64,000 nt of DNA from Candidatus Bathyarchaeia archaeon (GCA_050010515.1 JBEKKX010000007.1:1-64000); one strand, 5' to 3'; shown: positions 4,608 to 23,680, numbered from the stretch's first letter. Numbers and translations: made by a program. The notes: generated by a model from the letters alone, not told the origin.

Positions 4608-5562
4608 CTTTCAGTCCCTCCCCGTGTTCATGCTCATCTAATATTTCGCCATGTTCACTTAACTTTCTGCTGACAAGCTTAACGAAAACGTCGTCTAAGC
4701 TGTCACGGCGCGTCTGGATTTCTCCCCAGTCCATTTTTGACTGTTCAGCGGCAGCCAAAGCCGCGAGCGCATCAATTTTCTGTTTAATCGGTACGCTGAT
4801 TATTCCTCTGGAGTTGTCGTAATCGACGTGTAATTCTGTATTTGCTTTAATGTACCTAGCCAATTGTTCGGACCCGCGGATTTCAAGTCTTTCTCCCGAG
4901 CCGTGATGCTCAATGATTTCGTCGCTTGTTCCCATAGCCACAATTTTCCCATGATCCATGATGGCTACTCTGTCGGATAACTGCTGTGCCTCATCTAAGT
5001 AGTGGGTTGTTAAAATGATTGTTTTACCCTTAGCTTTCAATCCGCGGATGACATCCCAGATTGCTCTTCTAGCGTTCGGGTCCAGTCCAGTGGTGGGCTC
5101 GTCAAGAAATAGCAGTTCAGGCGTTCCCACAAGCGAAAGAGCAAGTCCCATCTTCTGTTTTTGCCCGCCAGAAAGGCTGTCAAAATTGGTTTTAGCTGAA
5201 TCCTCAAGCAAAACTTCTTTCAGAATTTCATCGGGGTTGACTTTAATGTCAAACAGATCCGCGTAGTAAATTATTGCTTCTCTAGGGGTTACTTTCTCAA
5301 TAAAATTAAACTCTTGAGGTATGACGCCGATTTTCTTGTGAAGTTCATAACCGTTTTTCCATGGGTCAAGACCAAGAACTTTCACGTCGCCTCCGTCCTT
5401 TTCTCTCAAGCCTTCTAAAATTTCTATGGTGGTGGTTTTGCCTGCGCCGTTTGGACCCAGAAGCCCGAAAACTTCACCTTTGTTAACTGTGAATGAGATG
5501 TCATCTACAGCTTTCAAGTCTCCATAGCATTTCTTGAGAGCAGAAACTTCAATTGGAATCAA
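4600..5562 (-). CDS. ABC transporter ATP-binding protein
   Basis: GPNGAGKTT, LSGGQ, LFLDEPTTGLD. Confidence 0.95.
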   Translation of the reverse strand: MIPIEVSALKKCYGDLKAVDDISFTVNKGEVFGLLGPNGAGKTTTIEILEGLREKDGGDVKVLGLDPWKNGYELHKKIGVIPQEFNFIEKVTPREAIIYYADLFDIKVNPDEILKEVLLEDSAKTNFDSLSGGQKQKMGLALSLVGTPELLFLDEPTTGLDPNARRAIWDVIRGLKAKGKTIILTTHYLDEAQQLSDRVAIMDHGKIVAMGTSDEIIEHHGSGERLEIRGSEQLARYIKANTELHVDYDNSRGIISVPIKQKIDALAALAAAEQSKMDWGEIQTRRDSLDDVFVKLVSRKLSEHGEILDEHEHGEGLKDV

Positions 5563-5695
5563 CTAAATTTTGCTCCTGTTTTCTTGGTTCTTTTGTGAGT
5601 CTGCCTTTTTCTGTTGGTTCGCTTTTACGGAATTACTGTTGTTAGAAATATGGCTTTCGGATATAGAGTTAATTTCTCCCTCATTAGTCTTTACA

Positions 5696-7645: not shown

Positions 7646-9028
7646 ATGAAATATGACGTAATAATCGTGGGTGCAGGACCAGCAGGCATCTTCTCAGCGC
7701 TAGAACTAACAGAGAAAACAAACTTAAACGTCCTGATACTCGACAGAGGACCCGACATAGACAAACGCAAATGCCCATCCAGCCGAGGGCTCGAATGTGT
7801 CCATTGTGAACCATGCTCAGTTCTTTCAGGCTGGGGTGGAGCAGGCGCTTACAGTGACGGAAAACTAACTTTGTCAACAGAGGTTGGCGGTTGGCTAAAC
7901 CAGTACGTTTCAACCAAAGAGCTCCAGGCGCTGGTGAAATACGTAGATAGCATCTACCTAAAATTCGGGGCAAGCGAGCAAGTTTACGGTGGAGATAGCG
8001 AAAAAGTAGATGAAATCGAACGTCAAGCGTCGCTTGCGGGTTTGAAGCTTATCAGGCAAGAAGTTCGCCACATGGGCACAGAAAAATGCCTAGAAACGCT
8101 ACATCGAATGCGTAAAGAACTTAACGGCAAAATCACTTTCCGACCAAAAACAGATGTGAAAGGCTTAATCGCTGAAAACCACCTCATCCAAGGAGTGGAA
8201 ACAGTAGACGGCGAAAAAATCATAGGCAAATACGTCATAATTGCTCCTGGCAGAAGCGGAGCAGAATGGCTCCAAACAGAGGCTCAGGTCCGAGGATTAA
8301 AAACCATAAACAACCCAGTTGACATCGGCGTACGCGTTGAAGTTTTAGCTTCAGTCATGGAAAACCTGACCAAAGAGCTTTACGAGCCAAAACTAGTTTA
8401 TTACTCACGACTTTTCGACGATCAAGTCCGCACTTTCTGTGTGTCACCTTACGGCGAAGTCACTACGGAATCATACGATGGCGTCTTAACCGTTAACGGC
8501 GGAAGCTACGCTGAAAGAAAAACCGACAACACAAACTTCGCCATTCTAGTCAGCACCTCCTTCACAGAACCTTTCAAAGAACCTATTGCTTACGGCAAAT
8601 ATGTTGCCAGACTTTCAAACCTCTTAAGCGGAGGAGTAATGGTTCAGCGGTTAGGCGATTTGGTTACTGGACGCCGCTCAACTCCCGAACGCCTTTCCAG
8701 AAGCTTGGTTGTACCAACTTTGAAGAACGCCACGCCAGGCGATTTAAGCTTCGTTTTGCCCTACCGTTATTTAGCAGACATACGTGAGATGCTTCAAGCC
8801 TTAGACGTGATAGCGCCAGGAATCCACTCAAGAGATACCTTGCTCTACGGCATAGAAGTCAAGTTTTACTCTTCACACTTGCAACTAAGCAATGCGTTGG
8901 AAACAAAAATCCAAAACATGTTCACCATCGGCGACGGTGCAGGTGTGACACGCGGTTTAATTCAGTCTTCAGCTTCAGGCGTCATAGTCGCTAGAGAAAT
9001 TCTGAAACGTGAACATTTGGGGGCTTAA
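7646..9028 (+). CDS. FAD-dependent oxidoreductase (COG2509-like)
   Basis: YDVIIVGAGPAG, GWGGAGAYSDGKL, GDGAGVTRGL; probable ATG at 7646. Confidence 0.9.
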   Translation: MKYDVIIVGAGPAGIFSALELTEKTNLNVLILDRGPDIDKRKCPSSRGLECVHCEPCSVLSGWGGAGAYSDGKLTLSTEVGGWLNQYVSTKELQALVKYVDSIYLKFGASEQVYGGDSEKVDEIERQASLAGLKLIRQEVRHMGTEKCLETLHRMRKELNGKITFRPKTDVKGLIAENHLIQGVETVDGEKIIGKYVIIAPGRSGAEWLQTEAQVRGLKTINNPVDIGVRVEVLASVMENLTKELYEPKLVYYSRLFDDQVRTFCVSPYGEVTTESYDGVLTVNGGSYAERKTDNTNFAILVSTSFTEPFKEPIAYGKYVARLSNLLSGGVMVQRLGDLVTGRRSTPERLSRSLVVPTLKNATPGDLSFVLPYRYLADIREMLQALDVIAPGIHSRDTLLYGIEVKFYSSHLQLSNALETKIQNMFTIGDGAGVTRGLIQSSASGVIVAREILKREHLGA

Positions 9029-9030
9029 AC

Positions 9031-9777
9031 TTGACTAATGTAGCTCAAGAAATCAAGTGCAGTCACTGCGGCGCTCCAGTTGAGTTTAAACCAGGAGAAA
9101 TAATTGCTACCTGCAAATACTGCGGCTTCAACACTGTCATCGAGACGGGGCAAGCATTCACGTTTGAGCATTCGCTTATTCTCAACAGGTTTGACCTAAA
9201 AAGTATAGACGAGCCGATTCAGGATTGGATGCGCGGCGGCTTCTTGAAACCAGGTGACCTCGCTAGGAAATCAAAGATTGCTGAGCGAGACTTGGTTTAT
9301 TTGCCATTTTGGGTGGTTTCAGTGGAGGCTAAAAGCACTTACAAGGGCATATTCGAACGCATAGCTCCAGCAATCGTTAAAGAGGGCACAATCTCCAAGG
9401 AATATGAGTGGCTGGTTTTGGCACGTGAAGCTTCCGGTTTCCCGACACGTGAATACTTGGTTCCTTTGGAAGGGAAAATCCCCTTCGACTTCCGCAAAAT
9501 CGAAGGCTTTGCCAAGCTATTAAACAGTGAAATGGACCGTGATGCTGCTTTAGAAATTGCCAAGCAACAAATCGAGGATCACCATCGCTTTCTTCTCGAG
9601 CAAGACGTGGATAAAATAGTCGAGATAAAAACCGAAGTCACCGCCAAACAAGAGGTCTATTTGCATGCGCCCATCTGGTTCATCAAATATGAATACAAAG
9701 GCAAAGTTTACCAGTTGATAATCGAAGGAACCGGTGGAACAGCCCTGAAGGGTGATATTCCCTCTTCAAGATTCTAA
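9031..9777 (+). CDS. Zn-ribbon protein (YdjG-like)
   Basis: CSHCGA...CKYCG, YLPFW and PIWFIKYEYKG motifs. Confidence 0.75.
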   Translation: MTNVAQEIKCSHCGAPVEFKPGEIIATCKYCGFNTVIETGQAFTFEHSLILNRFDLKSIDEPIQDWMRGGFLKPGDLARKSKIAERDLVYLPFWVVSVEAKSTYKGIFERIAPAIVKEGTISKEYEWLVLAREASGFPTREYLVPLEGKIPFDFRKIEGFAKLLNSEMDRDAALEIAKQQIEDHHRFLLEQDVDKIVEIKTEVTAKQEVYLHAPIWFIKYEYKGKVYQLIIEGTGGTALKGDIPSSRF

Positions 9778-17247: not shown

Positions 17248-17323
17248 GGGCTCGTCGTCTAGTACGGATTATGACACCGGCCTGCGGAGCCGGAGGTCCT
17301 GGGTTCAAATCCCAGCGGGCCCG
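17248..17323 (+). tRNA. tRNA-Arg(GCG); integration target (contains attL)
   Basis: Cloverleaf GGGCTCG/CGGGCCC with anticodon arm CCGGC-CTGCGGA-GCCGG and TTCAAAT. This copy has no encoded CCA. Confidence 0.95.
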
Positions 17324-17549
17324 TTATTCTTTTGCTTAAATCAGCTTGATTTGCGCTCGGATTGCCATTACTAAAATCTGTAACGGCGTTACAATTTTCC
17401 GTAACGCTTAGCCCAGCGCCCTGAAGCAACGTCGCCTCGTCGCGCAGTTGTGCGCTTTTAGCCTTTATACGGCAACGTAGCACACGGCCGTAAGCTTTGT
17501 CAAATTTTTCAGGGGACTTTATGAATTCAAGTTCTACTTTGCTTAACAT
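17259..17549 (-). CDS. Int(N): N-terminal fragment of split SSV1-type integrase
   Basis: Reads through the att as GPLGFEPRTSGSAG, the same peptide that starts Int(C). The two halves join in frame to give 386 aa. Confidence 0.88.
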   Translation of the reverse strand: MLSKVELEFIKSPEKFDKAYGRVLRCRIKAKSAQLRDEATLLQGAGLSVTENCNAVTDFSNGNPSANQADLSKRITGPLGFEPRTSGSAGRCHNPY

Positions 17550-17675
17550 GCTTTCGCCTTAAAGTCTTAAAGGTTGGCTCACACTTAAAGCTTACCGTAT
17601 AAATTATCAGATGAATTATAGCATAAAATTTATAACTGCCTAAGCCTTTAAGCATTTAAGCGCTATAAAGCATTG

Positions 17676-17804
17676 TCCGGTGAATATTCACCGTGCAAAA
17701 GCATGGCCCAGTTGCATGATTCCACGGTGATTGAACACCGTACAAACAGACATACGTGCAACGGGCTTTAAATCAAAGCCCTTCCACGGTGATCGAACAC
17801 CGTG
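17676..17804. repeat. palindrome cluster 1 (3 x CACGGTG-N6-CACCGTR)
   Basis: Copies at about 17677 (spacer AATATT), 17723 (ATTGAA) and 17785 (ATCGAA). Confidence 0.9.
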
Positions 17805-17850
17805 TAGGACTGGAGCCGGGCTCAAAAGCGCGTAATGGAGTAGACTAAGA

Positions 17851-18012
17851 ATGCGAGAAGCAATAGGCAAGTTAACGTGTGGCCCTAAGAGTCGTACGGG
17901 CATACTGTACATTCCATCCGACTTGATGGTTGACAGTGCGTTTCCGTTTCAAGCGCCTGCAAAACTCAAGGTGATAATTGAGGGTGATAAGCTGATTATC
18001 GAAAAAGCTTAG
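17851..18012 (+). CDS. AbrB/MazE-like small DNA-binding protein (53 aa, absent from ORF track)
   Basis: Hand translation MREAIGKLTCGPKSRTGILYIPSDLMVDSAFPFQAPAKLKVIIEGDKLIIEKA fits the swapped-hairpin pattern (LYIP...LKVIIEGDKLIIEK). Confidence 0.7.
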   Translation: MREAIGKLTCGPKSRTGILYIPSDLMVDSAFPFQAPAKLKVIIEGDKLIIEKA

Positions 18013-18299
18013 GCTGAGCGAGAGTTTAGGAGCTCTAAAAAGTGTGATAATGCTCACCACTAAGTTAATATAAGCGCTAAACATGCAAATTCTTAGGGCT
18101 AAAAAAAAATTAACTGAAAGGTGTATGAGTTTTGATGCATTGTAAGTATTTGAACAGAATATTCCCTCGATGTTGGCTATCCGATTTTAACGCCTTAGAG
18201 GAGGGAAAGCAGTAATGCTTGGTCTGAACCTGACTCCGGAACAAAAGTTCTGCAAGCCAGCGGAAAGCAAACGCTTGAACGGGGAGAAGGTGCCATAAC

Positions 18300-19109
18300 A
18301 TGGCTAACAAATGGCACATGAGGATAATCAGTCCTAAGCCGAATGGACTTAAAGGCATAGAGCTCGCAACGGATGACGAGCTTAAAGAGATTAAACCATA
18401 TTTGGCAAAATTGAACATTCCATATGATGGCAACCAGATTTTCTATAACCTAAATCCAAAACCCGAAGAAAGCAAAGTTCTTGAGGACAAGTTTCCAGAG
18501 TTTAAAGCTGAAGTTCAAGAATACGGCTTTCTATCGCCTGCTGTGATGATTATTGAAGCATACGTTAACTTTTTTATGACCCGCTACGAACGCGAGGACC
18601 CAAAACTGAGAGACGACGCTGAGTGGCAGAAAAAACTTAAGCAGCAAAGGGATGGATTAAAGGCAGAAAAAGCGTTTGATTTAATCTTGCAGGGTATGGC
18701 TTTGCCCTTTAATTATCTAGAGCCTATAACTGATTGGCGCAAAGGTCATGGAGCACCGTTTCCTCAAACAAGCGATTTTTATGTGCCAGCACTTGGAAAA
18801 CTTGAGGTTAAAAGTGTTACCAGATGGAGTGGTGAAAATAGAGTCAACGTTAACAAGGCAGAGTGGTTTGATGCGGCGCCAAATTACTTGGTTGCTCTCA
18901 CTCACATAGGTGGAAAATTTGTTATGCTTTGCGGAGCGATGCGTTTTTCTGAAGTTAATAGCTATGCTGGCGGACCTTTTGACATTGCCACGAGCAAGCC
19001 TTTTCTAAGCATACCCCTTGAAGACCTTACAATTACAGCTATGAGATTGTACCAAGTTTTGTTTGACGTGGAGATTAGACTTGACAAGTTGGATAAAGTC
19101 CAAATTTGA
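18300..19109 (+). CDS. putative PD-(D/E)XK restriction-like nuclease
   Basis: GLKAE...SDF...LEVKS motif arrangement. Confidence 0.65.
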   Translation: MANKWHMRIISPKPNGLKGIELATDDELKEIKPYLAKLNIPYDGNQIFYNLNPKPEESKVLEDKFPEFKAEVQEYGFLSPAVMIIEAYVNFFMTRYEREDPKLRDDAEWQKKLKQQRDGLKAEKAFDLILQGMALPFNYLEPITDWRKGHGAPFPQTSDFYVPALGKLEVKSVTRWSGENRVNVNKAEWFDAAPNYLVALTHIGGKFVMLCGAMRFSEVNSYAGGPFDIATSKPFLSIPLEDLTITAMRLYQVLFDVEIRLDKLDKVQI

Positions 19110-19197
19110 ATTTGCCCAATAGCTGAATTAGCGTTAAAGTTAAGCATGCCTTTAGAAGAACAAGGTTTTAAGCGTACATGCGTCAGCAACTATTAGT

Positions 19198-19813
19198 CTA
19201 TCCAGTAGAATCGGGGTACACGTTGAATATAACATTGCATGGCGGAAATTGGTTATATTCATCAATTGGATAATAGCGCCAAGGTAGGTCCAAGGGTAGG
19301 ACTATTGTGCCGTTTGCTGATAACACAGCAGTTGAGTGAGCATAACTTGGGTCTACTTCAAAGTAATAATCTCCATACGATAAAGGTACCGTATAATTTG
19401 AAGATGTAATTTGTGTTAAAGTCGTCTCATATGAGTCATTATACATTGTTAAAGTTACGGCCGCATTACCCACACCGGTGTTATTTGCTGCGTACAGTAA
19501 GTGACCGTAGATAACATACTCAGCAATATAATATGAACCATAAGCTTCCATTGTTATATTTTCTGCAGTAATAGGTGTAACGTTAACAGTGCCAAATACA
19601 ACTTGATTGGAAAATGGAAGTGTGGGTGTTAAGTACGGTGTTGGCGTGGACAAGAGTGTTGGCGTGGGAGTGGGCTTTATAACATCTACATTATTGACAT
19701 TTTGAGCATGCGAGTTAAATGTTAAGCCCGATTACACCTGCAGAGCACACAATCGCAATTAATGCGGTGATGCATACGTACATGAGGCGACTGCGCTTTG
19801 GGCTATTCAACAC
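19198..19813 (-). pseudogene. membrane-anchored/secreted protein with PT linker, frameshifted near 19728
   Basis: The leader MLNSPKRSRLMYVCITALIAIVCSAGVIG is out of frame by one base with LTFNSHAQ...KPTPTPT and the 19198-19653 ORF. Confidence 0.65.
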
Positions 19814-19996
19814 GCTACACCTTTACTTGCTTTAACAGCTAAGTTAGCGCTTCCTGCTTAAAGCATTTGGGTTCGAAGCGCTTTTGCACATTAGGCTTTA
19901 AAATAGGCTCAGACTGCAAATCCCTCGCTTGTTGTCTGCGAGTACGCCATAAGATACAGCATATAGCAAATTAGCTTAAAGGTGCATACGCATTTC

Positions 19997-20098
19997 CACG
20001 GTGTTCAATCACCGTACAAAAGCATAGCTTCCAATGGGTAAAGCGCTACAGATGCACGGTGAATATTCACCGTAAGGTCATGGAGTACACCGTACAAA
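19997..20098. repeat. palindrome cluster 2
   Basis: Copies at 19997 (TTCAAT) and 20055 (AATATT), plus a half-site CACCGTACAAA at 20088. Confidence 0.9.
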
Positions 20099-20156
20099 GG
20101 GGCAAAGCGCTGCAGAACCAAGCGATGGTCGAATTGGCTGTTAACCTTGAGCCCAG

Positions 20157-20918
20157 TTGGCTTACTCAATTATTCGACAGAATTTTCGGTATGGAATTTT
20201 ACTAAGAAAGCATGTAAGCGACAAAACCCTATTAAGTCCAAACATATTATATTGTAAAACTATCATACTTGCCTACAAGGCGAGACTGTTGATAGACGCA
20301 AAAATTAAAGAACTTCTGGGTTTTGATATCGATACTCCGGACAAAAAAGTTTTAGCTGCTTGGAAGGCTGCTTCATCGCGGGTATGCAAACCTTGTTGGG
20401 AACTCAAATATTGCCCATACGGACCCTTTGTTGAGGAGTCGCCATTGCTACCTCCATTACGCGAGGAAATGGTTAAAGAGATTAAGTATCTAAAAAATTG
20501 TCTCAAAACAGGTAAAATGGCTGATGGAAAGCCCTTAGATGTAAAGCGCAAAAAAATCTTCCAAGACGAGATAGATGGATTCAAACCTGAGGATTACCCA
20601 GAAAAAATTCCACAAGAAATTTTAGAATCAAGCTGCAACGTCTTTGGTCATATATGTCCTGTAGTATTTGTTGCTGAGGGATTCACTGAAACTTCTGAAA
20701 ATCGTAGAACTGGAAGATACATACCTTTTAAGGTAAAAATGCGTGTAGCTCGAAGGGATAATTATGTTTGCCAAGAATGTAAACACCAGCTTTTAGATGA
20801 CGAATTAGAATTTGACCATATAATACCTGTTTCAAAGGGAGGCAGTTCAGAGGAACACAATATTCGATTGACCTGCTATGACTGTAACCGAGACAAATTG
20901 GACAGAGTAGACCTCTAA
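20157..20918 (+). CDS. HNH endonuclease with Cys-rich N-terminal domain
   Basis: CQEC...EFDHIIPVSKGG...HNIRLTCYDCN; N-terminal CKPCWELKYCPYG and CNVFGHICP. The real start may be TTG at 20289. Confidence 0.9.
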   Translation: MAYSIIRQNFRYGILLRKHVSDKTLLSPNILYCKTIILAYKARLLIDAKIKELLGFDIDTPDKKVLAAWKAASSRVCKPCWELKYCPYGPFVEESPLLPPLREEMVKEIKYLKNCLKTGKMADGKPLDVKRKKIFQDEIDGFKPEDYPEKIPQEILESSCNVFGHICPVVFVAEGFTETSENRRTGRYIPFKVKMRVARRDNYVCQECKHQLLDDELEFDHIIPVSKGGSSEEHNIRLTCYDCNRDKLDRVDL

Positions 20919-21000
20919 CCGAACTTAATCACTTAGAAACACTCTTCTCAATCAATCTTGAGTTAATATCTTAAAGCCTCTAAAGGCATAGTTTGCTCTA

Positions 21001-21214
21001 CACGGCGTTTGAAGGCCGTAACGGGCACGTCAAGTTTAAGCACCGTGTCATAATACATTAAAGGGCGAAACGTGCGTCTGCAGTTTGTCTGGATAACGGT
21101 GGTACGCTTCCTCACGGTGTTCAATCGCCGTAAAAGCAGCTTTATTTGGGCTCTGATTGGCATTAACCTTCAAGCAGACGGCGCTATGCTTCTGCGCGGT
21201 GTTCGATCACCGTG
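21001..21214. repeat. palindrome cluster 3
   Basis: Copies at 21001 (degenerate), 21113 (TTCAAT) and 21195 (TTCGAT), plus a half-site CACCGTG at 21041. Confidence 0.85.
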
Positions 21215-21332
21215 GAATTGTGCAAGGTAAGCTATTAGCTTAGGCTTGCTTTGAACGTGACCTGACCAAATAATCGGCATACTTGCCATAAAACTTGTCC
21301 GCCTGTCAGCTGATCACTGCACTAAGATTATC

Positions 21333-21378
21333 TGTGTACACACAGTTTACACAAAAAACTTATATGTGTAAACACAGT
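21333..21378 (+). promoter_or_regulatory. TATA box flanked by operator-like repeats
   Basis: TGTGTACACACAGT (21333) and TGTGTAAACACAGT (21365) surround AAAAA-CTTATAT, upstream of the RHH gene. Confidence 0.65.
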
Positions 21379-21406
21379 ACACACATATTCAGAGAAGCGA
21401 TTGCTA

Positions 21407-21859
21407 ATGCCAAAAAACATTACACTCTCAATGCCCGATGACGTGGCTGCGGATATGGAAGCCATGCCTGAAGTAAATTGGTCAGCTGTAGCGAAGGGAA
21501 GCATTAAGACGTACATTGAAGCTCGGAAAAAACCCGATATCACACCATTAATTGAAAACCTTCTGCGACAGAAAACCGAAGAATACGTTAACGGAAGAAA
21601 AAAGGCAGACGAGATCGCTGAAAAGTCAGGATATCGATTCGTAGACATAATCGTACGCAAATGCTTTACAAAATCTTCAGAGATCCACGACATGGAAGAA
21701 CAAAACTACCCACCATGGGAAATACCAGATCTTGATCAAGAATTTGAAAAAATACTACTCGACCTCAAGGTAATCACAACGGAAGCTTCAGGAGAGTTCT
21801 TAAAAGGCATTAGGGAGCGATTAATCGAGATATATCACGTGCTCAACCAGCAAGAATAA
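21407..21859 (+). CDS. ribbon-helix-helix (CopG/VapB-antitoxin-like) protein
   Basis: MPKNITLSMPDDV...EVNWSAVA...I RHH pattern. Confidence 0.75.
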   Translation: MPKNITLSMPDDVAADMEAMPEVNWSAVAKGSIKTYIEARKKPDITPLIENLLRQKTEEYVNGRKKADEIAEKSGYRFVDIIVRKCFTKSSEIHDMEEQNYPPWEIPDLDQEFEKILLDLKVITTEASGEFLKGIRERLIEIYHVLNQQE

Positions 21860-21860
21860 T

Positions 21861-21940
21861 GGATGGATAGCTTAGCACGGACTTAAAGCACCCGCCCGCT
21901 AAGCGGAAGACCGTGGGTTCAAATCCCACCCCATCCACCA
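21861..21940 (+). tRNA. element-encoded atypical tRNA, anticodon GCT, short variable loop, CCA encoded
   Basis: GGATGGA-TA-GCTT-AGCACGGACTTA-AAGC-A-CCCGC-CCGCTAA-GCGGA-AGACC-GTGGG-TTCAAAT-CCCAC-CCCATCC-A-CCA. Confidence 0.75.
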
Positions 21941-21964
21941 ATTTAATACTATTAGTCTGTTTAA

Positions 21965-22903
21965 TTAATAAGTTTTTGATCCAGTCTCTGGAACTGGAGG
22001 CTTATTTGTAGTGGTATCCGATTGCATTTTCAGCCTTAAGCTTGTTAAGTACTCAGTATATTTACCGTAGAACTTATCCGCTTGTCGCCTTAGCACCATA
22101 TAATGCTTTGCACCTATGCGCTTTGGCACCCTGCCTTCAATAAAGTCTGCAACGCTTTCTGGAACCTCAAGCTCAACCATCTTGTCAAAGGCGAACTTGC
22201 GCAGATATTTGGGTGCAATCGCCTTATGCTTCCTGCAGCGATGTGCCGCTGTTCCGGGTCTAAACGCTTTTTCTGAGACTTGGCTCAACAGCTTAAAGGT
22301 GTACTCGGTAAAGTATCCGTAGAACGCTTGCTTGTTGCCCCTAAAAGCTCCAATCTCAACGCGGTAAAATCCATTAACCGTCGCAACCTTGTCAGCCTCA
22401 AATTCGCTTATCACCTTAAGCGCCTCGACTAAACGCAACCCGGAGTCAACCAGAAGGTTATACAGAGCCCAATACTTTAGGGTCGCATTTTTGATTGAGC
22501 TTAGGGAGCGTACAATCTCTGGCTCGTCTGGAACTTTAAGGTCTATTCCGGTGCAATTAGCTTTAGGCAGCGATTTTCTGAGAATGTTGACTACCCAGTC
22601 ATCATATCCGAGCGCTTCCAAATAATTAAAGAGAACTCGGAAGCCAAGCCAAAGGTTACGCCTACCTTTCTTAACCTTACTGAAGATACCAATAACATCT
22701 TGGGGATAATTTATCACCTTAAAGTGCCAGTCAAGATAGCGAAGAATATCAGTGATGTAGGTTGAGCTATAGCTTTGAGAATCCAAATATTGCCTAAAGC
22801 CCTGTCGCAAATCAGCCCAAATCAAGCTTATTTTTAAATTCTGAGCGCTTTTGACGCCTGCGGAGCCGGAGGTCCTGGGTTCAAATCCCAGCGGGCCCGC
22901 CAT
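21965..22903 (-). CDS. Int(C): catalytic fragment of SSV1-type tyrosine integrase
   Basis: DSGLRLVE (R), PKYLRK (K-x-x-R), IEGR and AKHY (catalytic Y); begins in attR. Confidence 0.93.
   Translation of the reverse strand: MAGPLGFEPRTSGSAGVKSAQNLKISLIWADLRQGFRQYLDSQSYSSTYITDILRYLDWHFKVINYPQDVIGIFSKVKKGRRNLWLGFRVLFNYLEALGYDDWVVNILRKSLPKANCTGIDLKVPDEPEIVRSLSSIKNATLKYWALYNLLVDSGLRLVEALKVISEFEADKVATVNGFYRVEIGAFRGNKQAFYGYFTEYTFKLLSQVSEKAFRPGTAAHRCRKHKAIAPKYLRKFAFDKMVELEVPESVADFIEGRVPKRIGAKHYMVLRRQADKFYGKYTEYLTSLRLKMQSDTTTNKPPVPETGSKTY
22856..22899 (+). repeat. attR: 44-bp copy of tRNA-Arg 3' half, followed by CCA
   Basis: Exact match to 17280-17323. Confidence 0.95.
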
Positions 22904-23002
22904 CTTCCCATAAAAAACTAATTTTTTCAGGGATTCAATTAAAAAGTAATTTAGCCTTTTTGAGCGCTAAAATTAAAATGTTAAAGAAACGGTTAAGGGT
23001 TT

Positions 23003-23680
23003 TTATTCTCTGCTTGAGAGTATCAGGATGTAGTCTGCTGTGTCTGCGCACATGTCTGATGCTTGCTCGATGAATTCTATCAGGTCGTCGAATATTACCA
23101 TGGCTCCGCAGTTTATGTTTGCGCCGTATTTCACGAATAAGCTTTTAGTTTTAAGGTATTCAACGTCTATTGCGTGTTCTATTTCGCCGACTTTTTTTGC
23201 TTCATTTATGGCTTCTGTTGGGTTTGATGAGATTTTTTCTATGCTGTTTCTTAATGTCTGTGCTGTTTCCACAAGTTTTCCAGTCATGAAAACGGTTTTT
23301 TCGCATAGCTCTTGTGGGATTTCAGCCTCAGAGAGCATTTCAAGGCATCTTGCAGCATCTTTAGTGTGGTCTGCCAGTGTATCTAACCGTTTAACAAGGT
23401 GTAAGAGGTCTTCGCGGTAATCGGCTACAAGAGCTGCACCCTTGGATAACTCCATGAAGACGTCTGTTCGAAGCTGGTCAACGCCTTCCTCAGTTTTATA
23501 TAAGTTTTCAATATACTTTTGTGCTTCTTTAAAGTTTTTTTCTGAAAAGCTTTTGGTTGCTTTATGCAACCATGTTACAGTATCAAAAGCCTTTGTTATT
23601 TGATCATGAGCAAGTTCTAATCCTCTGGTTTTACGGCGCTGCTCAAACCAATCGTAACTTTTTTTTTCCACTCTCATCAC
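23003..23680 (-). CDS. DUF47 / PhoU-like phosphate transport regulator
   Basis: E..D-RTD, REDL..LD.LAD and E...D.CADTAD helical repeats. Confidence 0.85.
   Translation of the reverse strand: MMRVEKKSYDWFEQRRKTRGLELAHDQITKAFDTVTWLHKATKSFSEKNFKEAQKYIENLYKTEEGVDQLRTDVFMELSKGAALVADYREDLLHLVKRLDTLADHTKDAARCLEMLSEAEIPQELCEKTVFMTGKLVETAQTLRNSIEKISSNPTEAINEAKKVGEIEHAIDVEYLKTKSLFVKYGANINCGAMVIFDDLIEFIEQASDMCADTADYILILSSRE

Follow-up and report, generated by a model that had tools for sequence, protein, structure and literature searches.

The DNA examined here, called the window in what follows, is the whole 64,000-nucleotide (nt) stretch GCA_050010515.1 JBEKKX010000007.1:1-64000 from a Candidatus Bathyarchaeia archaeon, whose genome belongs to the same GTDB genus as a metagenome-assembled genome of Candidatus Bathycorpusculum sp. 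A cryptic integrated element of 5,576 bp, of the SSV-type (“suicidal”) integrase class, is seated in a tRNA-Arg(GCG) gene of this genome and carries the palindromes with which this work is mainly concerned. The element is delimited by an exact 44-nt direct repeat whose two copies start 5576 nt apart. The repeat is the 3' part of the tRNA gene, and it is read through by the open reading frames (ORFs) of both Int(N) and Int(C), the two parts of a split integrase gene. Int(C) matched the archaeal phage integrase family PF16795 (1.2e-31, model positions 3-160 of 161) as well as phrog_5127 (2e-44), and homologues of Int(N) were located at the far end of the elements of relatives. These matches and the ORFs running through the repeat place the gene among the archaeal SSV-family integrases, with an att site inside the int ORF that is split on integration. 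They confirm a first-pass annotation of the sequence, which had described a minimal integrative element of 5576 bp in tRNA-Arg with the order attL-Int(N) to Int(C)-attR. Integration splits int at its internal att site, and excision would restore an ORF of about 386 amino acids (aa), to judge from the two ORFs present.

As that annotation had also noted, no replication or capsid gene could be recognised. Searches of the element with Pfam, PHROGs, NCBIfam and PADLOC returned only the integrase and an HNH domain, and no virion or conjugation gene. An integrase accompanied by no recognisable virion, conjugation or replication gene is what characterises a cryptic integrated element. The base composition was unremarkable, with a guanine-plus-cytosine content of 0.40-0.45 within the element and 0.37-0.49 outside. 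The features are collected in Table 1.

Table 1. Features of the integrated element and its tRNA seat, with positions counted from the first nucleotide of the window.
Feature	Position	Strand	Remarks
Host tRNA-Arg(GCG), complete	17248..17323	+	Rfam 59.2 bits; its 3' 44 nt (17280-17323) are the attL copy of the att core
Int(N), 5' part of the split SSV-type integrase gene	17259..17549	-	96-aa ORF
Palindrome cluster 1	17667..17810		sites 17678-17693, 17724-17741 and 17785-17804; between the divergent int and abrB starts
AbrB/MazE-like protein, 53 aa, backbone	17851..18012	+	homologues at 45-83% identity in six other loci
PD-(D/E)XK nuclease-fold protein, 269 aa, backbone	18300..19109	+	rare family; assigned from conserved residues and fold matches
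Secreted or anchored protein gene, frameshifted	19198..19783	-	signal-peptide piece 19718-19783; body ORF 19198-19653 (frame open to 19731)
Palindrome cluster 2	19987..20100		sites 19998-20015 and 20056-20073; lone half-site 20087-20098
Conserved block of about 75 nt, readable as a 26-codon micro-ORF	20125..20205	+	common to L048, L039, L018 and L007 (two copies)
HNH endonuclease gene (maximal ORF)	20157..20918	+	PF01844, 9.8e-12
Palindrome cluster 3	21103..21220		sites 21114-21131 (1 mismatch) and 21196-21213; flanked by the stops of HNH and of the relic integrase
Relic of a second integrase gene, last 21 codons and stop	21240..21305	-	nucleotide homology to the L048 remnant reaches 21317
Separate inverted repeat around TATA-like TTATAT	21330..21388		seen in the sequence just upstream of the RHH gene
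Protein with likely N-terminal ribbon-helix-helix (RHH), 152 aa	21401..21859	+	lead only
Element-borne tRNA, anticodon GCU	21861..21937	+	encoded CCA after it; Rfam 53.4 bits
Int(C), catalytic part of the split integrase	21965..22903	-	312-aa ORF
attR copy of the 44-nt att core	22856..22899	+	exact repeat

The window stretch, whole or in part, was present in peat and wetland metagenomes (20 rows, 19 studies), five of them possible sources, and no RNA dataset was listed. The assembly breaks at the att repeat. In run X4 one contig covers 17298-22885 at a depth of 58, the left flank having 57.7, and in run X13 the corresponding values were about 6 and 6.06; such depths are not copy numbers. Neither a joint between the two att copies nor a joint at the palindrome clusters was found in the contigs of four metagenome runs, which drop rare forms and cannot show them. 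Viral contigs contained no relative of the integrase and none of the nuclease. Two metagenome loci represent the same element. L016 is identical, and L017 has 47 differences, all of them left of the tRNA and none within 17248-23286. Between 16500 and 17153 of the window, 35 differences from L017 fall in a repeat-rich gene of 429 aa and 12 between this gene and the tRNA, in the spacer. No difference was found in the element or in 383 nt of its right flank. The differences in the left flank possibly stem from a hypervariable repeat gene, an assembly effect or a recent spread of the element.

The two genes that follow Int(N) deserve attention because of their recurrence in relatives. For the 53-aa protein the label “AbrB-like”, proposed in the first-pass annotation, is kept as a tentative one, since PF04014 (MazE_antitoxin) was matched by three of the seven family members, at best with 2.3e-4, but not by the window copy. 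A PDB sequence search with the family gave nothing useful. The 269-aa protein likewise gave nothing useful in the PDB sequence search, and no match in Pfam, PHROG, NCBIfam or PADLOC. In the alignment of this protein the residues E123, D159, E169 and K171 were invariant, and the AlphaFold2 model (pLDDT 86, pTM 0.86) found as its best PDB matches exclusively PD-(D/E)XK proteins, namely I-Ssp6803I, HincII, SSV1 D212, Hjc, DpnI and NlaIV. The matches were weak (best E 0.06) but consistent, and together with the four residues they support the earlier naming of a PD-(D/E)XK nuclease. The family is rare, with only 11 matching proteins among 5.8 billion and, in a search of 401 Bathyarchaeia genomes, an occurrence in three, which belong to a single genus. 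A complex prediction for the nuclease with the AbrB-like protein scored 0.00, a value that counts neither for nor against binding.

The element contains a palindrome of its own. When up to one mismatch was allowed, CGGTG-N6-CACCG was found at seven sites in the window, all within the element (expected 0.69; none of 100 shuffles reached seven). The exact motif occurs six times in the whole 2.38-Mb genome, every time inside the element. In its full form, ACGGTG-N6-CACCGT, the palindrome is arranged in three clusters (17678/17725/17787, 19999/20057 and 21115/21197). The arms are identical in six of the seven window copies, and the 6-nt spacers vary. A pattern with a 7-nt spacer was tried and gave one unrelated match only; the spacer is 6 nt. 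Clusters 1 and 2 sit between divergent starts, and a TATA-like box at 17767 lies ahead of the last site of cluster 1 (17785-17804). In the host, TATA-like words peak 30-60 nt ahead of start codons. The words enriched 20-60 nt before 971 long ORFs were of the TAAATA, TTTATA and TTAAAT types, and the flank 'ATGCTTTT' was rejected as a promoter box.

Homologues of the integrase were found at 10 loci in species genomes and at 34 in metagenome contigs, and within the window's genus 9 of 120 genomes carry the gene, the window's own included. Ten distinct complete elements bounded by att repeats were compared: that of the window (5576 bp), L005 (4114 bp), L007 (4827 bp), L009 (2933 bp), L013 (1546 bp, integrase only), L018 (4406 bp), L021 (4267 bp), L054 (5265 bp), L077 (6955 bp) and L079 (6197 bp). 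The int gene split through the att repeat was present in all nine relatives, and the tRNA targets among them include tRNA-Arg, Glu, Gly and Ser. An AbrB-like gene occurs in seven of the ten, as does a nuclease homologue, and in six (window, L018, L007, L009, L054 and L077) the two genes are adjacent. They overlap by 4 nt in L009, are 1-2 nt apart in L018 and L054, and are separated by 288 nt in the window; the small gene stands directly upstream of the nuclease gene, which is the gene order of toxin-antitoxin pairs. Because of this adjacency in six complete elements, the pair is backbone and not cargo, and the initial proposal of a nuclease module carried as cargo is abandoned. Besides int, the backbone comprises the AbrB/MazE-like and PD-(D/E)XK nuclease genes; the variable part of the window element is the frameshifted secreted-protein gene, the HNH gene, the RHH gene and the tRNA. 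The slot beside the 3' end of int is occupied by the HNH gene in the window, by an FkbM methyltransferase (2e-23) in L018, by a 159-aa zinc-ribbon protein in L007 and by a 380-aa protein in L077.

The palindrome motif of the window was absent from the ten relatives checked. Other palindromes were found in L018 (GATACG-ATCGAT-CGTATC, two copies, expected 0, and a different one beside the int stop), L007 (CTTATC-ATCGAT-GATAAG, three copies, expected 0), L077 (AAGGAAG-N5-CTTCCTT, four copies, expected 0.01) and L005 (two copies with a 6-nt ATATAT centre), and also at the loci L048 (CTGGTG-ATCGAT-CACCAG, two copies) and L039 (TGCTATC-ATCGAT-GATAGCA, three copies and two lone half-sites). All four copies of the L077 palindrome in its 3.0-Mb host genome lie within the element, and so do the three copies of the L007 palindrome in a genome of 2.7 Mb. 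Within one element the arms stay constant and the spacers drift, as seen in the window and in L077. The positions are equivalent: in the window, L018 and L007 a palindrome between int and abrB precedes the abrB start by 37-72 nt and is 128-139 nt away from that of int, and in these three and L077 further palindromes flank the gene next to the int 3' end. The first-pass annotation had expected motif clusters conserved among relatives, with varying genes between them. Palindromes at equivalent places and a varying gene content were indeed found, but the arms are private to each element. Among the remaining elements, L079 has a unit of 25-36 nt repeated at three places, L054 (three spaced repeats) and L009 have other repeats and no such palindrome set, and in L013 and L021 neither palindromes nor repeats were seen. 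In L077, seven tandem 20-bp repeats (5477-5656) lie directly upstream of the AbrB-like gene and are distinct from the palindromes of that element.

The integrases of the window and L018 are 90% identical in aa sequence, the att is the same, the AbrB-like proteins share 83% and the nucleases only 60%. Between conserved flanks, a palindrome block of 160 nt separating int and abrB has been replaced as a unit. The element of the window also contains the relic of a second integrase gene, overlooked in the first-pass gene layout, which otherwise agrees with ours in its main lines. The relic is 85.5% identical in nucleotides to an integrase remnant in L048 and, as judged by eye, less like the end of the window's own int. 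Since the RHH gene and the tRNA are thereby enclosed by two integrase 3' ends, the element is a mosaic, and the relic shows exchange at the conserved int 3' end.

Most likely, the palindromes are sites at which a protein of the element itself binds. In a more specific form, they would be private sites of the operator type, with gene turnover by ordinary recombination, a proposal whose chances of being right and wrong we consider about even. Half-site recognition on duplex DNA by a dimer is suggested because the arms are constant, the spacers drift, lone half-sites occur and the sites are found nowhere else in their host genomes. A dimeric protein encoded by the element would accordingly bind palindromes of 18-26 bp as duplex DNA, and these would act as operators for the transcription units of the element and as roadblocks where genes converge. 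Each related element would have evolved its own arm sequence, in a manner akin to the divergence of phage immunity types. The best candidate for the binder is the nuclease, alone or with the AbrB-like protein, since it is the sole backbone protein that diverged in step with the arms between the window and L018. Genes would turn over where ordinary recombination takes place in conserved parts of the backbone, the int 3' end for example, and where single ORFs are gained or lost; they would not be exchanged by site-specific recombination at the palindromes.

Several observations weigh against this proposal. The AbrB-like protein and Int(N) are nearly alike in the window and L018 and the arms are unrelated, so that the obvious regulator cannot explain the specificity of the arms, and the binder is a candidate only. 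No TATA-like box and no credible start were found around cluster 3, and one site in L007 (10869) and two in L077 (9428/9449) lie between convergent gene ends. With cluster 3 and these sites situated in this way, away from a TATA-like box, a pure promoter-operator role is insufficient, which suggests a roadblock or looping role for them. Moreover, the palindromes of four elements bracket a single slot whose gene differs from one element to the next, as would be predicted for cassettes, and L048 resembles an empty slot. The build of two arms around a 6-nt spacer (up to 10-6-10) would also suit the core site of a tyrosine recombinase. Finally, the three-position pattern is present in only four of the ten complete elements.

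An alternative is that the palindromes are cleavage sites of the element's PD-(D/E)XK nuclease, which would act in a restriction- or homing-like way to start replication or to attack competitors and would be restrained by the AbrB/MazE-like protein. The conserved E, D and ExK residues of the nuclease, a fold resembling that of type II enzymes that cut palindromes and of a homing endonuclease, a gene that belongs to the backbone and usually lies directly behind the AbrB-like gene in an antitoxin-toxin layout, and the rank of the nuclease as the most diverged backbone protein would all be in keeping with such a role. We nevertheless regard it as unlikely, given that the fold matches are weak, that no methylase or other self-protection was seen in the element, that L009 and L054 have the gene pair and no such palindrome set, and that the L009 homologue is devoid of the lysine of ExK. 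A broader version is slightly less likely still. The elements would form a Rep-less family composed of modules (int, the AbrB-nuclease pair, one variable gene), with palindromes at the junctions that are read by their own nuclease alone. The AbrB/MazE-restrained nuclease would cut or nick these junctions, starting replication of the circle or driving shuffling among co-resident elements with the same palindrome, and arms and nuclease would co-diverge into incompatibility types.

The idea put forward in the first-pass annotation was that the repeat clusters delimit exchangeable cargo, following the logic of integrons or pdif modules. The palindromes would then be site-specific recombination sites, like integron attC or pdif, bounding cassettes that pass from one element to another. 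The four different genes in the bracketed slot of the window, L018, L007 and L077 would fit such a mechanism, as would the two palindromes of L048, which are 210 nt apart with no gene in between. As in Xer/dif-type cores, a 6-nt spacer is enclosed by symmetric arms, here of 6-10 bp, and spacer types recur across the clusters of the window (AATATT in clusters 1 and 2, ATTGAA/TTCAAT in all three, ATCGAA/TTCGAT in 1 and 3). However, since the arms differ between elements, sites of different elements could not pair. The arms are unrelated even in the window and L018, in spite of their 90%-identical integrases and common att. Nor are the sites shared by several elements, the window motif being absent from the relatives, or carried along with a gene. 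The HNH proteins of the window and L039 are 68% identical in aa sequence, but the HNH gene lies upstream of the nearest palindromes in the window and, in L039, downstream of palindromes of another type, 33 bp from the int stop.

The boundaries of homology point the same way. The similarity of the two HNH genes stops exactly at the ORF stop, and the region that varies between the window and L018 has its limits at the 3' ends of the nuclease and int genes and not at palindromes. Cluster 1 is inside the invariant int-abrB backbone, the orientations given by the flanks and by the spacers disagree between copies, and the relic integrase speaks for exchange at the conserved int 3' end. Joints at the clusters are absent from the contigs of the four runs, with the limit on rare forms given above. 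Because of the private arms, the position of HNH on opposite sides of the palindromes and the breakpoints at ORF or int 3' ends, the cassette mechanism is judged quite improbable and the palindromes are probably not cut-and-paste sites for gene swapping, although recombination at the palindromes is not disproved by these data. What stands of the original idea is the varying gene content beside palindromes at equivalent places; the integron or pdif logic does not, given private arms despite 90% integrase identity, HNH on opposite palindrome sides and one cluster in the fixed backbone.

It is very unlikely that the clusters serve the excised circle as a replication origin or in partition, in the way of iterons or centromeres. 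No Rep gene was recognised with Pfam or PHROGs, iteron-like arrays exist in relatives (the seven 20-bp tandem repeats of L077 and the three spaced repeats of L054), and several sites around a small circle would suit a pairing complex. In contrast, the sites are dispersed at three places and not gathered beside an AT-rich stretch, no episomal form was seen in the contigs of the four runs, and the iterons and palindromes of L077 are different sequences. Least probable are hairpins in RNA or single-stranded DNA (terminators between convergent genes, processing signals or single-strand origins, with arms free to vary as long as pairing holds): the arms do change on both sides between elements with the symmetry kept and a centre that is often ATCGAT, and the L007 copies are flanked by T-runs and A-runs, one of them lying between convergent stops, but within an element the arms are invariant and the spacers vary, lone half-sites exist in the window and L039, the stems are merely 6-7 bp, and cluster 1 is upstream of both neighbouring genes.

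The remaining genes of the element were assigned with varying confidence. The ORF of 151 aa first described as a surface protein has no signal peptide of its own, and a signal or anchor peptide of 22 codons was found just upstream in another frame. This indicates that the gene is frameshifted; it is thus of the secreted or anchored type, but the ORF has been cut off from its signal peptide. The HNH nuclease was recognised as such by its Pfam domain, and since homology to the L039 copy begins at residue 38, its true start is probably near 20270-20290. For the 152-aa protein the RHH label is a lead that comes from an Atlas score of 0.94 to a cluster in which 45% of members have RHH_12, with no Pfam match. 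The inverted repeat just upstream is probably the operator of this gene itself. The internal tRNA is real by its Rfam score. It has a variable loop of 5 nt and two mispaired stem positions; serine tRNAs, unlike this one, have a long variable arm. It occurs as a single copy in the genome, the closest host genes being those for tRNA-Arg(TCG) (78%) and tRNA-Arg(CCT) (75%). In three metagenomes the bin containing it (21861-21940) was deeper in contigs than the rest of the element, as if shared by other organisms. PADLOC found no family for seven of the eight element proteins and only generic domain matches for HNH, so the suggestion of a defence-cassette carrier has no backing.

A conserved block of about 75 nt, adjoining palindromes, was found in the window and at L048 (8486-8602), L039 (1552-1637), L018 (2630-2704) and twice in L007 (11556-11623 and 13095-13161). 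Its invariant ends, ATGGTCGAA and TTCGA, lie within an A/T-rich stretch. A structured RNA was rejected (fold z-score 0.08, none of eight predicted pairs covarying), and a peptide gene is doubtful, the 26-codon ORF being present in three loci and the frame stopped in three of the six copies. The block may be another protein-binding site.

Some relatives showed further peculiarities. In L021, 4.3 kb long and located in tRNA-Glu, the AbrB-nuclease pair is replaced by a 597-aa protein (1182-2975, also present in L020) with a DTDS motif like that of family-B DNA polymerases, recognised by eye and with no NCBIfam match; the element also encodes a 278-aa protein with a C-terminal helix-turn-helix. 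L013 (9984-11585) is an att-bounded element in tRNA-Ser(tga) that seemingly contains the split integrase gene and no other. The L005 element is bordered, immediately beyond its att site, by an integrase C-terminal remnant of 94 aa (8871-9155), which was left by a previous integration into this tRNA-Arg. At L048 (7100-7990) a different split-type integrase of 296 aa, with its N-terminus read from tRNA-like sequence, lies directly beside a remnant of the window-family integrase, and this site has been used repeatedly.

To our knowledge, no mobile DNA of archaea is more common or less well understood than the small integrase-only elements, and we know of no information on the control and copying of those in Bathyarchaeia. 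The family described here provides a compact and comparable set of ten complete elements of 1.5-7 kb. As the palindromes are unique in each host genome, they are clean probes for the protein that reads them. Should the nuclease be the reader, a mobile element would here recognise itself by a system of a new kind. Should it be a repressor, the family would constitute a natural series of immunity types, which could be of use in developing genetic tools for this uncultured class of archaea. With the relic of the second integrase, the model of hybrid integrases formed from pseudogenes is extended beyond hyperthermophiles.

As regards known systems, integron attC and pdif sites are imperfect palindromes with a short central spacer, which flank variable genes and have a tyrosine recombinase encoded nearby. 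The palindromes of the element resemble them in being centred on a spacer, beside variable genes and near a tyrosine recombinase. They differ from them in that they do not travel with the genes and are not common to several elements, in that one cluster is in the fixed backbone, and in that no recombination product was seen in the contigs of the four runs. An SSV-type integrase element of similar size, pSSVi (about 5.7 kb), likewise has a tRNA-Arg gene as its target.

The window element falls within a known class, the cryptic integrated elements (CIE) with split SSV-type integrases (PMC6563490). The CIE of Thaumarchaeota are described as bounded by the integrase, located in tRNA genes, devoid of virion and conjugation genes and often of a replication gene; they go down to 2.6 kb with four genes, and one has an SSV1-like integrase that is split on integration (PMC6563490). 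The window element is like them in its tRNA seat, its integrase bounds and its lack of virion and conjugation genes. It differs in its host class, Bathyarchaeia, and in the recurring backbone of int, AbrB/MazE-like and PD-(D/E)XK genes and the private palindromes, which do not appear in the available parts of that account (PMC6563490). In Thermococcales and Sulfolobales, elements with “suicidal” SSV-type integrases, among them pT26-2, pSSVi and pXZ1 (PMC7253208, PMC8371274), likewise have att inside the int ORF and yield Int(N) and Int(C) pseudogenes on integration into a tRNA gene. They mostly carry recognisable replication proteins, and the hosts of the window family are, in contrast, mesophilic and from peat and wetland. 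Remnants that differ in origin can be combined into one SSV-type integrase (PMC7253208), a model into which the relic int 3' end of the window and the 94-aa integrase tail of L005 fit.

A precedent by analogy for the operator reading is offered by the F55 repressor of SSV1, a 55-aa protein whose 11-nt binding site is present in several promoters, including the one of the integrase operon (PMC9608457, PMC8371274). On the operator reading, the window element would resemble SSV1 in that a short motif recurs in several promoter regions, the integrase promoter among them, and in that the binder would be encoded by the element itself, as the small protein F55 is. The F55 sites, however, are 11-nt direct repeats with a known RHH binder, and those of the window are palindromes with a candidate binder only, some of them outside promoters (PMC9608457). 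A literature search, judged from its listings, found no paper on such elements in Bathyarchaeia. What is new here is the recurring backbone of int, AbrB/MazE-like and PD-(D/E)XK genes in one Bathyarchaeia genus, accompanied by private palindromes at equivalent positions.

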